Source of the DNA: Clostridia bacterium | GTDB taxonomy: Bacteria; Bacillota; Clostridia; TANB77; CAG-465 | Length of the DNA: 64,000 bases | Reading direction: 5' to 3' | NCBI GenBank assembly: GCA_045536565.1 | Contig: JAZSNU010000011.1 | Coordinates: 57,732-121,731, forward strand | Shown: in pieces, positions 60,052 through 64,000 of the stretch | Position numbering within the stretch: the stretch's first letter is position 1 | Layout: every line of letters begins with the position of its first letter | Made by a program: the position numbers and the translations under genes | Notes under the pieces: generated by a model | What the model saw: only the letters and a program-made list of their open reading frames with translations | Databases searched by the model: none | Told to the model about the DNA's origin: nothing

Positions 60052-60201
60052 TATACATCTCGGTTTTTGTATAAATATATATACTTATTTGCATGAAATG
60101 TTGTAACCTTTTGTAAGGTTTTGCTAATTTATATACAAATATATATAACTATGTTAAAATGTGTGCACCAACTTCTTTGTAGGAAGGAGGTGCGCTACTA
60201 A

Positions 60202-60276
60202 GTGGATTTTCTAGTTTTGGTTTTATTTCTTATGATTATATTACTAAAAGAATTAAATTCAAACAATAAGAAATAA
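60202..60276 (+). CDS. Putative type I toxin, 24 aa (copy 1)
   Basis: GTG start, MDFLVLVLFLMIILLKELNSNNKK; GGAAGGAGGTGC RBS can pair with upstream GCACCAACTTCT. Confidence 0.72.
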   Translation: MDFLVLVLFLMIILLKELNSNNKK

Positions 60277-60343
60277 ACAGATAACAGGATAGGGCGATAA
60301 CTCTATCTTGTTATATTTTATGTTTAAATTTTTAAACATATAC

Positions 60344-60415
60344 AAAAAATGCTGAGATATCGATAACTATCTCAGCAACTACTAGTGGATTTACTAATAT
60401 TACAACTTCGTTGCA
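60344..60415 (-). ncRNA. Putative antitoxin sRNA, copy 1 (about 70 nt)
   Basis: TTGACA(60449)-17-TACAAT promoter; terminator hairpin 60350-60377 plus U tract; complementary to the toxin start region. Confidence 0.65.
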
Positions 60416-60573
60416 CTAATATTGTAGCATATATGGAAATAGTTGTCAAATTAAATGAATGATATATGGGATGTATGACAAAAGTAGACAAATGATTTTA
60501 AAAGAATATGGTGTATTATAGATATAACAAAGTCTGAGATGTATATTTACATTTCAGACTTTTGTATATATTG

Positions 60574-61374
60574 TTACTTTCCATATTTTTTTAATCCTTT
60601 ATTGTATGTTATAACCGCTAATATCATTATTAAAACAACAATAATTATTTCAAATAAAAGGATTATTAAGTTAAAATCTTTAATAAGCATTATAGGTATA
60701 TGTGCAACATACATAGCAGGGAGTATAGTATACATTAATATTTTTATTATTCCCGGAAACATTTCCTTAGGATATATAGTAAGTGTTAGTAATATACTGT
60801 GAGTATATGTTCTAGTAGTTCTTGATATATCCCCAAGCCAAAAGGAAAAAGAATTAACTAATATGGTTATCCCTAAAAATCCTACTGCTCCTATTATTGA
60901 AACAATGATAAGGCAAATATATTTTACAGGATTAAAATTTACTGCAAATATTCCAAGAAATGCACCATAAAGCAAATCACCCATAGCAGAGAGTTTTGCA
61001 GATGAAGTTACCAAAGATATTAAACTATGTTTAGGTTTTGTAAGGTCATTATCTATTTCTTTATTTGCAATCTTGTAAGATAAGTCTTCTACGCCACCAA
61101 ACAAGAAGAAACACAAACCATAAGAAATAGTTGGTGCACTCCATAATAGTATAATATCGTTTATAGTAACTCCGTTTATATTACCATCTGAATTGTAAAA
61201 AAGTATATACCAGAATGCAAGCCAAATAAAGTTGTTTAAAAACATAAATAATGTTTGTATTATAAAACTCTTTTTGTTGGAAATGGCTTGTGATACATTA
61301 CATTTAATACAATACATTATGTATTTAGTAATAGATTGTATTTCTTTAAATAATTTATTAAACACCATTGACAT
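60574..61374 (-). CDS. ABC-2 family permease
   Basis: Six TMs, G.T..D, D..LTKP, IYP..MFP. Confidence 0.85.
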   Translation of the reverse strand: MSMVFNKLFKEIQSITKYIMYCIKCNVSQAISNKKSFIIQTLFMFLNNFIWLAFWYILFYNSDGNINGVTINDIILLWSAPTISYGLCFFLFGGVEDLSYKIANKEIDNDLTKPKHSLISLVTSSAKLSAMGDLLYGAFLGIFAVNFNPVKYICLIIVSIIGAVGFLGITILVNSFSFWLGDISRTTRTYTHSILLTLTIYPKEMFPGIIKILMYTILPAMYVAHIPIMLIKDFNLIILLFEIIIVVLIMILAVITYNKGLKKYGK

Positions 61375-62134
61375 TTAATTTTTTCACTCCTTTTATATAA
61401 ATTACCGCAAATATAATTGTTAAAATAACAAATGAGCCAAGCTCATAGATGAATAGTGACTTGAAAAATCTTGCATAACTAAAATCAATTAATAGTTTGC
61501 TAGGTGTATATATTACATGTGTTGTTGGAAGCAGTAGTAATGGTTTTTGTAGCATTTTTGGCATAAGTTCAATTGGAGTAAATGCAAATATAAGCATAAA
61601 TTTTTGAACTATAAGCCAAATAGAAGAAGTATCTTTTCCAACCCATATTGAGCAAAGTCCAACAATTATGTGTATACACAAAAGTAATATACAAGCAAAT
61701 AAAACTACGATAAATGCACATATAATACCTGTTATTGATATGTTAATTGATCCTGCAACAAATATACCAATTATACTTCCAACGAGAAAGTATAATATTG
61801 TAAACGGAAGAAGTCCTATACCTTCTGATATAATCCTAAAAATGTAATTATATGGTTTTGACAAATCATAGGCGATAGTTCCACTTTCTACCTGAAATGA
61901 AACAGTCTTAAAATAGTTATGGTATGAGTAAATTATTGATTCACCAAATATTACATACCATATAAGGTTTTCTCTTGTATATCCTGCAAGAAGTTTATCA
62001 CCTAAAACAAATTCCCAAAGCAGACAAAATACTGATATATGGATACTGAATCCAATGAGTGTACCTATAATGTCAGATATTTTACTTGATTCGCTTTTAA
62101 ATACTGTCTTAAAGAATGTAAAATATTTTCTCAT
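61358..62134 (-). CDS. ABC-2 family permease
   Basis: GYT...L.WY, SG.IAY.L.KPY, P..LMP. Confidence 0.85.
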   Translation of the reverse strand: MRKYFTFFKTVFKSESSKISDIIGTLIGFSIHISVFCLLWEFVLGDKLLAGYTRENLIWYVIFGESIIYSYHNYFKTVSFQVESGTIAYDLSKPYNYIFRIISEGIGLLPFTILYFLVGSIIGIFVAGSINISITGIICAFIVVLFACILLLCIHIIVGLCSIWVGKDTSSIWLIVQKFMLIFAFTPIELMPKMLQKPLLLLPTTHVIYTPSKLLIDFSYARFFKSLFIYELGSFVILTIIFAVIYIKGVKKLNVNGV

Positions 62135-63117
62135 TTTTGTTCCTCCTTCTTGGTAGTGTAAATATCATAAATTACATTTTCAAGTGAACTGCTGGTAACC
62201 GTGAAATCAGAAATATTTCCAATATCTGAAATATATGATAATATTTCACCGGTGGATATTTGTGTTTTATTAAATCCAATTGTTAATACATCATTATCTA
62301 CTTCATATGATACAGGTAAGTCTTTAAAAGTATTTTTTACAGTCTTTAAATTTATTTCTTTTTCAAATGTTGCTATGGCAGTGCACTTAGATAAATAGTT
62401 ATCTTTTATGTCTTTCATACTACTATCTAACATAACTTTACCATGATTAATTAGTATAATACGAGAACATAACTTTTCAATATCAGAAATGTCATGGCTT
62501 GTTATAAAAATAGTCATACCATATTCCTTATTTAATTTTCGTATTATATCGCGAACTTTTTTCTTCATAACAATGTCAAGTCCAATAGTAGGTTCATCTA
62601 AAAATAGAATTTTAGGTTTGTGCAGAGTTGCAATCGCAACTTCGCAAATCATTCGTTGTCCAAGTGATAAAGTATTTGCCTTTCTATCCATTAATTCTGA
62701 TATTCCAAAGAAATTTACTATATCGTTTATACGAGTCTTTAATTCCTCTGGTTTAATATCATATATAGCACCAGATAGTTTATAACTATCGATTACTGGA
62801 AGATGGGGAATAAGTGAGCCTTTTTGTCCAAATACAGTTGCTATTTCATATGCCATCTTTTTTCTGTCCTTCCAAGGAGTAAAATCAATTACCTTAGCCT
62901 CTCCGCCAGATGGATAAAGTATACCTGTAAGCATTTTTATTGTAGTAGATTTACCAGCACCATTTGGTCCTATAAAGCCAATAATTTCACCTTGCAAAAT
63001 ATCAAAAGATACATTATCAACAGCAGTAAGTAAAATTTTTTCCTTTCTTCCTTTTTCGTTTTTTACCTTTGTTTCAAAGGTTTTACTTAAATTTTTAACT
63101 TCAATTATTTTTTTCAT
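62131..63117 (-). CDS. ABC exporter ATP-binding protein
   Basis: GPNGAGKST, LSLGQRM, FLDEPTIGLD, TSHD. Confidence 0.93.
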   Translation of the reverse strand: MKKIIEVKNLSKTFETKVKNEKGRKEKILLTAVDNVSFDILQGEIIGFIGPNGAGKSTTIKMLTGILYPSGGEAKVIDFTPWKDRKKMAYEIATVFGQKGSLIPHLPVIDSYKLSGAIYDIKPEELKTRINDIVNFFGISELMDRKANTLSLGQRMICEVAIATLHKPKILFLDEPTIGLDIVMKKKVRDIIRKLNKEYGMTIFITSHDISDIEKLCSRIILINHGKVMLDSSMKDIKDNYLSKCTAIATFEKEINLKTVKNTFKDLPVSYEVDNDVLTIGFNKTQISTGEILSYISDIGNISDFTVTSSSLENVIYDIYTTKKEEQK

Positions 63118-63162
63118 AGCGAAAACCCCTTTCATATTTTAAATTGTTAATTTTGTATATAT

Positions 63163-63198
63163 AAAAAGATGCGCTAAGGTCAAACCTTAACACATCTT
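63163..63198 (-). terminator. Leader (attenuator) terminator upstream of the ABC operon
   Basis: AAGATGTGTTAAGGT-ttg-ACCTTAGCGCATCTTTTT on the minus strand, with G-U pairs. Confidence 0.75.
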
Positions 63199-63238
63199 GA
63201 ATTTTCTTTTTTAGTTCTATTTAAATTATATTTTATTA

Positions 63239-63367
63239 TTAATCTATATTAGAATTTTTAAAAAGTTTAAAATCCATAAATGTATGAAGGTATGACAAAT
63301 AATTACCCATGTGATTCGCCACTGGATACCATTTATTTAATGATTTAAAACATATTGTTGATAGCAT
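63239..63367 (-). CDS. Putative 42-aa leader peptide
   Basis: AGGAGGT RBS; MLSTICFKSLNKWYPVANHMGNYLSYLHTFMDFKLFKNSNID; contains the anti-terminator segment. Confidence 0.6.
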   Translation of the reverse strand: MLSTICFKSLNKWYPVANHMGNYLSYLHTFMDFKLFKNSNID

Positions 63368-63670
63368 TGTTATACCTCCTTTTCCTTTCAATTTTTATAT
63401 AACAAATACTTAATTTTATCTCTTGGGATAATATAAATTTATATGAATTTAAATATTCCCTATAAATTTAAAATAACATATTTAAAAAATTATGTCAATA
63501 CTTTTTGGTAAAATTATGTAAATATGTTTTAGAATAGAATTAAAAAAATAATAGAATAAATAGATAAAGTTGTAACCTTTTGTAAGGTTTTGCTAATTTA
63601 TATACAAACATTAATAACCATGTTAAAATTCATGCACCAACTTCTTGGTAGGAAGGAGGTGCAATTAGTT

Positions 63671-63745
63671 TTGGAAAATTTAATAATCATTCTGTTTCTT
63701 ATGATTGTATTACTTAAAGAATTAAATTTCAAAGATAAGAAATAG
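63671..63745 (+). CDS. Putative type I toxin, 24 aa (copy 2)
   Basis: TTG start, MENLIIILFLMIVLLKELNFKDKK; same sequestered RBS as copy 1. Confidence 0.72.
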   Translation: MENLIIILFLMIVLLKELNFKDKK

Positions 63746-63811
63746 AGCACTTAGTAGATAGAGCTATAACTCTATCTACTATATTTTATGTATATTAATT
63801 GTAATATATAC

Positions 63812-63886
63812 AAAAATGCCGAGATATCTATAACTATCTCGACATTACTTCTTTATTGGAAAATTTAATATTACAACTTTGTTGTA
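63812..63886 (-). ncRNA. Putative antitoxin sRNA, copy 2
   Basis: TTGACA(63920)-17-TAAAAT promoter; terminator with a minus-strand G-U pair; 15-nt perfect complement of the toxin start. Confidence 0.65.
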
Positions 63887-64000
63887 CTAATATTTTAACA
63901 TAGAAGAAATTAGTTGTCAAATAAAATAGAGTGAGTGACAAAAGTAGACAAATAATGGTAATATGAGATAAAATTAGTAATATGTATATTTGCAAATTAT

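Follow-up and report, generated by a model that had tools for sequence, protein, structure and literature searches.

A module of about 390 bp occurs in two direct copies (~60100-60497 and ~63570-63955, within the region 59900-64000) near the end of the window, the stretch of 64,000 nucleotides from contig JAZSNU010000011.1 of a Clostridia bacterium that was analysed here. Going by its sequence, each copy is quite probably a type I toxin-antitoxin-like module that follows the par (Fst/RNA II) design, with a terminator that is duplicated. The elements follow the same order in both copies: a toxin promoter, a 5′ hairpin that sequesters the Shine-Dalgarno (SD) sequence, an open reading frame (ORF) for a peptide of 24 amino acids, a terminator on the plus strand (T1) and, after 33-35 nt of spacer, one on the minus strand (T2), then a 5′ hairpin of the form CAAC-N3-GUUG and a minus-strand promoter for a predicted small RNA (sRNA). 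A first-pass annotation of this DNA had listed the elements of the module, and all of them were found in both copies where it had placed them.

On the plus strand of copy 1, a conserved upstream block with the toxin promoter (60100-60160, 93% identical to copy 2; TATACA-17-TAAAAT with TG at 60132-60160) leads into the SD-sequestering hairpin (60163-60195, -18.6 kcal/mol), the ORF for MDFLVLVLFLMIILLKELNSNNKK with its stop codon (60202-60276, GTG start, peptide profile E = 4e-10) and T1 (60281-60324; stem 60281-60314, loop CGATAA, tail ATTTTATGTT), which forms 14 pairs on the plus strand and 5 on the minus strand. The corresponding block and promoter of copy 2 (63570-63629, promoter 63601-63629), recognised by promoter scan and copy comparison, are followed by the hairpin (63633-63663, -15.9 kcal/mol), the ORF for MENLIIILFLMIVLLKELNFKDKK with its stop codon (63671-63745, TTG start) and T1 with its tail (63752-63789; stem 63752-63781, loop CTATAA; terminator scan). 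In both copies AGGAGG (60185-60190 in copy 1) is paired with an upstream CACC...CUUC in a hairpin that begins 2-3 nt past the toxin -10 box (2 nt in copy 1), and the start codon lies 11 nt after AGGAGG. Across the aligned module the copies are 77% identical.

The minus strand carries the sRNA genes, which were modelled with R1, a covariance model built from alignment A6 of the sRNA gene from promoter through U tract. The predicted sRNA of copy 1 has 73 nt (60342-60414, predicted ends; R1 = 102 bits) and consists of the 5′ hairpin (60413-60403), the repeat copy (60401-60379), T2 (60377-60350, loop GUUAUCGA) and a U tract; its promoter is TTGACA-17-TACAAT with TG (60421-60449). That of copy 2 has 79 nt (63807-63885; R1 = 99 bits), with the 5′ hairpin at 63884-63874, the repeat copy at 63870-63856, T2 at 63846-63815 (loop GUUAUAGA) and a U tract, and its promoter is TTGACA-17-TAAAAT with TG (63892-63920). 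The separate minus-strand terminator and the TTGACA-17-TA(C/A)AAT promoter proposed in the first-pass annotation are present in both copies. The two promoters, each scoring 11/12 with a TG extension, are the joint best of 35 promoter-like sites in the region, which also holds eight terminator-like sites against 0.9 expected, T1 and T2 of both copies among them. The predicted 3′ ends of the messenger RNA (mRNA) and the sRNA are separated by ~17-19 nt in both copies.

Two short segments of each mRNA recur in the sRNA template of the same copy. At the toxin start region, copy 1 carries CTACTAAGTGGATTT at 60195 and CTACTAGTGGATTT at 60379, the mRNA-side repeat (60195-60218, plus strand, from repeat search and predicted duplex) lying over the GTG start codon; copy 2 carries TTGGAAAATTTAATA at 63671-63685 and again at 63856. 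The 64-kb window contains two matches to each of these repeats, with none expected (100 shuffles for copy 1). At the terminator apexes, the word CGATAACT occurs twice in copy 1 and CTATAACT twice in copy 2. Identity between the copies is lowest in the repeat segments, 44% on the mRNA side and 56% on the sRNA side; it reaches 81-93% in promoters, hairpins and the ORF core. The predicted duplex of each mRNA with its own sRNA spans the start codon, at 60193-60230 in copy 1 (-26.0 kcal/mol, versus -9.0 with the copy-2 sRNA) and at 63670-63697 in copy 2 (-16.2 kcal/mol, versus -9.0 with the copy-1 sRNA).

The source genome (1.13 Mb, 22 contigs) has a third intact module on contig C21, and relatives supply more. 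A peptide profile matched 16 ORFs with E ≤ 3e-7, which come from 7 of the family's 79 genomes and two of its six genera. Two further members were added through a weaker match and through the sRNA model. The peptides have 21-26 residues and the consensus MxxLIIILFLMIxLxKELNxKxKK; proline, glycine and tryptophan are all absent from 14 aligned peptides. All 15 complete modules have convergent toxin and sRNA promoters, the latter of the form TTGAC(A/T)-17-TA(T/C/A)AAT, a predicted sRNA of 69-80 nt, and an SD hairpin (-10.0 to -18.6 kcal/mol) that begins 2-7 nt past the toxin -10 box. The -35/-10 arrangement of the copy 1 toxin promoter can also be read in five genus-g1 modules. Start codons are ATG, GTG or TTG; in the seven modules checked they are located 8-11 nt past AGGAGG, and five of these seven use a codon other than ATG. 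In genus-g2 modules the sRNA 5′ hairpin is simply CAAC-N3-5-GUUG.

These modules extend the copy-specific co-variation, first noticed in two copies, to 15 complete modules for the start-region repeat. Duplex energies were calculated for every mRNA start region against every sRNA 5′ part in a 15 × 15 matrix. Cognate pairs average -25.8 kcal/mol versus -10.6 (standard deviation 3.5) for non-cognate pairs; the cognate sRNA is the row minimum for 15/15 mRNAs, and the cognate mRNA is the column minimum in 13/15. The matched start site is ~15-27 nt long, with direct repeats ~185 nt apart, and in most modules 1-4 unmatched bases near the start codon break the repeat and give it a two-part look. The apex words were compared in a 14 × 14 matrix, the fifteenth module having no T2. 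Here the cognate mean is -11.5 versus -3.6 kcal/mol, with the cognate partner as row minimum in 12/14 (ties allowed). Apex matches are sharp-edged and 6-12 nt long, and the adjoining stem sequences differ. Among the three copies of the source genome, crossed pairs reach -8.0 to -10.3 kcal/mol at the start site and -1.1 to -5.6 at the apex, and cognate pairs -16.2 to -28.6 and -8.2 to -14.2, respectively. In neither matrix did any of 100000 partner permutations reach the observed sum, counts that overstate independence because the modules are related to one another.

The covariance search that had been proposed for finding further copies returned matches in the family and across the order: within the family R1 matches 19 of 79 genomes at E ≤ 0.01; in a sample of 151 genomes drawn from across the order it matches 25 at E ≤ 0.001, and 15 of these belong to a sister family represented by 52 genomes. 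A set of 49 loci was assembled from the 15 modules, 10 further family matches and all 24 matches outside the family, leaving aside 19 weaker family rows (E 0.001-0.01). Twin terminators with an identical 6-12-nt word at the T1 apex and the T2-template apex are found in 37 of them (34 assigned by script, three by eye), and these 37 use 28 distinct words; one locus has, in both terminators, the reverse complement of a relative's apex word. The 5′ repeat lies on the SD, start codon and ORF in 32 of the 37. Four loci (G005_C69, G091_C6, G093_C7 and G158_C33; two of the single-terminator loci assigned by eye) combine one bidirectional terminator with an ORF and a repeat, which is the classical par layout, and the remaining eight are orphan sRNA genes or unclear. 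The claim of a new par-like architecture with a duplicated terminator is thus borne out as to layout; the layout is not confined to the window, and single-terminator relatives exist.

At least five classes of ORF, dissimilar to one another, share this scaffold: the LFLM peptides to which the window copies belong, amphipathic peptides of 25-29 residues, ELIWRLIVLLLLS peptides of 28-31 residues, hydrophilic peptides of 34-45 residues, and LIW...QKIEKL peptides of 30-34 residues. Unrelated ORFs of this kind (at L192, L164, L181 and other loci) include the amphipathic MDKFINLIEAIAKLINSVTRLIKSI and hydrophilic sequences of 34-45 residues such as MTVGDAILSLVDKLLVEREK... The single-terminator loci encode three other hydrophobic peptides of 21-22 residues. 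G005_C69 is the only single-terminator module in the LFLM family. Its peptide and T1 resemble those of the twin module G034_C7, and it retains a TATATAC motif that elsewhere is located after T2; because of these features, loss of T2 is the likelier direction of change for this module alone, as distinct from the whole order. In G034_C5 the ORF is present and an sRNA promoter is not recognisable. L202 (G172:C2) is an sRNA gene without a toxin ORF, and its T2 apex TCTCTAC equals the terminator apex of a long ordinary ORF upstream; either the toxin ORF has been deleted or the sRNA addresses the terminator of a normal gene.

Under the toxin-antitoxin reading, a weak-to-moderate promoter would produce an mRNA of ~160 nt whose 5′ hairpin hides the SD and which encodes the hydrophobic, lysine-tailed peptide of 24 residues. 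A convergent, near-consensus promoter would produce an sRNA of ~70-80 nt with a small 5′ hairpin, a single-stranded stretch and its own terminator. The single-stranded stretch would be able to pair with the mRNA over a segment that opens right after the SD hairpin and extends across the first codons. Recognition would presumably begin with a loop-loop kiss between the sRNA terminator and the mRNA terminator, and a duplex over the start codon would complete it and block translation. As the terminator is split in two, the stems would remain unpaired between the RNAs, and pairing would be confined to the 5′ repeat and the 6-12 nt of the apex; paralogs differ at both of these short sites, which would keep modules in the same genome from cross-talk. 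Transcription, the RNA ends, the absence of 3′ overlap and the toxicity of the peptide are predictions that we infer for the modules.

Several features point indirectly to a harmful ORF: the composition of the peptide, the non-ATG starts, SD sequestration, an antisense promoter much stronger than that of the toxin, the multicopy and tandem state of the modules, and the manner of their decay. The last suggests harm because decayed copies lose the ORF or the SD while the sRNA gene stays. In a remnant on contig C11 of the source genome (G000), ~190 nt have been lost exactly between the mRNA and sRNA repeat copies, by comparison with an orthologous intact module of the same genus, so that the ORF is gone along with both terminators. 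Five modules form a tandem array (L095, G032:C3:61800-66200) next to a tRNA gene and a tRNA fragment that is repeated; two of the five have an identical SD deletion, and one of these two ends after T1 at unrelated DNA. The array may be an integrative island. Orphan sRNA genes also exist among the family matches.

Some observations weigh against the toxin-antitoxin reading. The copy-2 duplex is the weaker of the two in the window, and one foreign mRNA start region pairs better with the copy-2 sRNA (-17.1 kcal/mol). Insulation between paralogs, which the first-pass annotation had described as built in, holds in that paralogs of one genome differ at both sites and breaks down for one within-genome apex pair, the mRNA of G052_C38 and the sRNA of G052_C21, whose -9.6 kcal/mol equals that of the cognate pair. 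More broadly, 81 of 1892 non-cognate apex comparisons share at least 7 nt, mostly between close relatives, and the kinship of the modules also qualifies the permutation counts. T1 is a perfect palindrome, equal on both strands, in 8 of 15 modules, so a read-through sRNA could stop at T1 and overlap the mRNA. Finally, the hydrophobic stretch of the window peptide is very short, at ~13 residues, and hydrophilic ORFs of 34-45 residues, unusual for type I toxins, share the scaffold in sister families.

The palindromic T1 would suit an ordinary cis-antisense arrangement, with leaky terminators, transcripts overlapping at their 3′ ends as in par, SprA1 and Bacillus systems, and a second terminator that is incidental. 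The single bidirectional terminator of four relatives fits as well, as does the distance between the T1 and T2 stems in sister families, merely 8-24 nt (28-50 nt in the peptide family; 35 and 33 nt in the window copies). This arrangement is nevertheless improbable, for overlap pairing would leave the identity of the two apexes unmaintained, yet 37 loci keep it through 28 words, and a U tract is conserved after T2 in 14/14 twin modules. In 7 of 15 modules, copy 1 among them, little of the T1 stem is left when it is read on the minus strand. The strand assignments had been supported by G-U pairs; that support is real and modest, since T1 is much better on the plus strand in those 7 modules and on the minus strand in none, and T2 is mixed, much better on the minus strand in 4 of 14 (12 pairs against 7 in copy 2) and better on the plus strand in 2 of 14. 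A cassette for the tight control of small ORFs in general, with an sRNA repressing a small membrane or regulatory peptide that is no toxin, would accommodate the dissimilar and partly hydrophilic ORF classes, the short hydrophobic stretch and the chromosomal position of the modules at varied places. We consider it unlikely, since the hydrophobic N-terminal part and lysine-rich tail, together with non-ATG starts, SD sequestration, a strong antisense promoter and multicopy or tandem occurrence, fit type I toxins as described in the sections of PMC6563280 and PMC2887945 drawn on here; the decayed copies, which drop the ORF or SD and keep the sRNA gene, speak in the same direction.

Two other explanations deserve very little credence. 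If the matches within modules were historical, left by duplication or gene conversion between direct repeats and devoid of RNA-RNA function, the C11 remnant would be in keeping, as it shows that recombination between such repeats, ~185 nt apart, does occur. Such an origin is nonetheless highly improbable: the matches are short and sharp-edged next to stems that differ, the matched segments diverge fastest between copies yet stay matched within each, and the 5′ repeat falls on the SD and start codon in most twin loci. It is equally hard to credit that the peptides serve the flanking ABC-2 transporter as exported peptides or regulators. The window copies do bracket its minus-strand operon (ATPase 62131-63135, permeases 61358-62134 and 60574-61374), yet 43 of 79 family genomes have the operon and 7 the peptide family, G053 has the operon beside rplS and no module, and other modules are found at varied chromosomal sites, after an unrelated gene, beside tRNA genes or in tandem arrays. 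The bracketing looks incidental.

Returning to the par-like toxin-antitoxin reading, a broader proposal can be made for the scaffold, to which we would give about even chances. The SD hairpin, the start-codon repeat and the back-to-back terminators with complementary apexes may form a portable RNA repression device that has been employed repeatedly within one order of gut Clostridia, for no fewer than five unrelated classes of small ORF. Splitting the bidirectional terminator of a par-like ancestor would have freed the stems from complementarity and placed specificity in two short, fast-evolving address sites, yielding a library of at least 28 mutually insulated pairs of kissing loop and seed. 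Support for the two-step recognition mechanism has so far come from mutational work in a few systems. The 28 apex words and as many start-site repeats, matched within each module, amount to a compensatory-mutation experiment that evolution has repeated, and so many different within-module matches are strong comparative evidence that both contacts matter. The terminator contact can apparently persist without genomic overlap, an arrangement that the consulted part of the T1TAdb paper (PMC8594479) does not contain for Gram-positive bacteria. The set of modules could also supply orthogonal pairs of RNA regulators for synthetic biology, and it opens up the small-protein and sRNA biology of uncultured gut Clostridia with small genomes, where ORFs of 21-45 residues and sRNAs would go unannotated.

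As for the genomic context, trmD-rplS directly adjoins the ABC operon in a same-genus genome without modules, and because of this the modules and two unannotated ORFs at 59218-60051 are taken as insertions beside a conserved operon. The two ORFs are adjacent paralogs of 144 and 131 residues, ~35% identical and without a Pfam family; being absent from the trmD-rplS-ABC interval of that genome, they would have come in along with copy 1. The minus strand also has, immediately upstream of the ABC ATPase gene, an ORF of 43 residues (63242-63370) preceded by a good SD, which a same-genus genome carries at 58% identity. A strong terminator-like hairpin comes next (63198-63166), and the arrangement (63166-63370) resembles a leader peptide with an attenuator that would control the transporter. 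Downstream of copy 1 (60485-60574), a plus-strand promoter-like TAGACA-16-TATGGT precedes a 15-bp hairpin (60529-60562) that also ends the minus-strand ABC operon; the hairpin could be a bidirectional terminator, and the site may also give a very short transcript. The contig and the window end 45 nt past copy 2, perhaps because the repeated module interrupted the assembly.

Within the modules, a conserved untranscribed block, GACAAAAGTAGACAAAT, lies ~30 nt upstream of the sRNA -35 box (60477-60497 and 63935-63955, 90% identical between copies), and a second, GTTGTAACCTTTTGTAAGGTTTTGCTAAT, lies upstream of the toxin -35 box (60100-60131 and 63570-63600). Both recur in the C11 remnant and in same-genus modules and might serve as regulator sites or UP elements. 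In 15/15 modules a helix of 9-13 bp is predicted within the ORF, joining codons 7-11, the LFLM codons, to the last codons and the stop (60220-60277 and 63690-63747). At least five sequence variants preserve its pairing, for example UUAUUUCUU/AAGAAAUAA versus CUAUUUCUU/AAGAAAUAG; the helix may partly be a by-product of leucine and phenylalanine codons pairing with lysine codons. A candidate third contact, between CAACTTC in the SD hairpin and the sRNA 5′ end, was dropped, as it is missing in genus-g2 modules.

Database searches returned little. Pfam has no match to either window peptide at E ≤ 1. The Pfam Fst_toxin model (PF13955) finds nothing in the genome and likewise nothing above cut-off in control genomes, which leaves the sensitivity of this run unproven. 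A scan of 59000-64000 against Rfam at E ≤ 10 gave six chance-level matches only, to microRNA and plastid families, fstAT not among them; the sole match of fstAT (RF01797) in the genome lies elsewhere, on contig C17, with E = 0.29. In blastn searches copy 1 had no match in plasmid and phage collections. A degenerate DNA pattern identified 11 stretches in genome contigs, comprising four true modules already known and seven chance matches; in viral contigs it identified one stretch, without a module-like ORF, and in metagenome contigs 35 stretches and no module. Full-text literature searches, whose scope did not extend to subscription journals or supplementary tables, brought up no account of twin terminators whose apexes match, and an earlier mention is possible.

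Among known systems, the modules most resemble par of the Enterococcus faecalis plasmid pAD1 and its chromosomal homologues (Fst/RNA I/RNA II). According to the sections of PMC7472228 used here, the promoters of par converge, its complementary terminator loops initiate the contact between the RNAs, repeats at the start codon complete the pairing and shut off translation, and a 5′ stem-loop has a delaying effect on translation. The window modules have the convergent promoters, the oppositely transcribed direct repeats over the toxin start codon (DRa/DRb in par), the SD-sequestering 5′ stem-loop, the small hydrophobic peptide with a charged tail and the short sRNA. They also have the complementary terminator loops, found here in 37/49 loci, whose role as the first contact is presumed. 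In par a single bidirectional terminator serves both RNAs, whose 3′ ends overlap, whereas the window modules have two terminators that match at the apex only. The predicted mRNA begins at the SD hairpin, its 5′ end being predicted, and a separate upstream helix such as sequesters the mRNA 5′ end in par is not seen. The U-turn motif YUNR does not occur in the window T1 loops, CGAUAA and CUAUAA, with their flanks; nor is it present in all par homologues, as stated in the same portion of PMC7472228. Unlike Fst, the peptides of the window family (21-26 residues) lack the PXXXG motif and tryptophan, as well as any Pfam Fst_toxin or Rfam fstAT match, and on these sequence grounds they are not Fst homologues.

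A second relative in mechanism is SprA1/SprA1AS (PepA1) of Staphylococcus aureus, in which a 5′ domain of the antitoxin outside the genomic overlap pairs with the toxin translation start; the passages of PMC8594479 at hand name Fst/RNAII and SprA1/SprA1as as the cases of interaction outside the overlap. It differs in that its RNAs overlap at their 3′ ends and its toxin is Fst-like. We know of no report of matched twin terminators, no search aimed at them in this case having been made. TisB/IstR-1, ShoB/OhsC, Zor/Orz and DinQ/AgrB share with the window modules an sRNA that does not overlap the toxin mRNA and a short complementary region, but they are Gram-negative, their sRNA gene lies 5′ of the toxin gene, and a terminator-loop contact is not described for them in those passages (PMC8594479). 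The same part of the T1TAdb paper places the antisense RNA 3′ of the mRNA, overlapping it, in all Gram-positive families, and gives the non-overlapping families as Gram-negative with the sRNA 5′ of the mRNA (PMC8594479).

The same bacterial class also includes the modules of Clostridioides difficile (CD2517.1-RCd8 and relatives), which likewise have convergent genes and toxins with a hydrophobic N-terminal part and a lysine-rich tail (PMC6563280). Theirs, however, overlap and form extended duplexes, their toxins have 34-59 residues, and recognition by repeat plus loop is not described in the portion of PMC6563280 available; within that portion, this review of Clostridia covers only overlapping convergent modules with toxins of 34-59 residues. 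The same source defines a type I system by a hydrophobic peptide of <60 residues with a charged C-terminus and an antisense RNA complementary to its mRNA (PMC6563280), a description with which both window modules agree.

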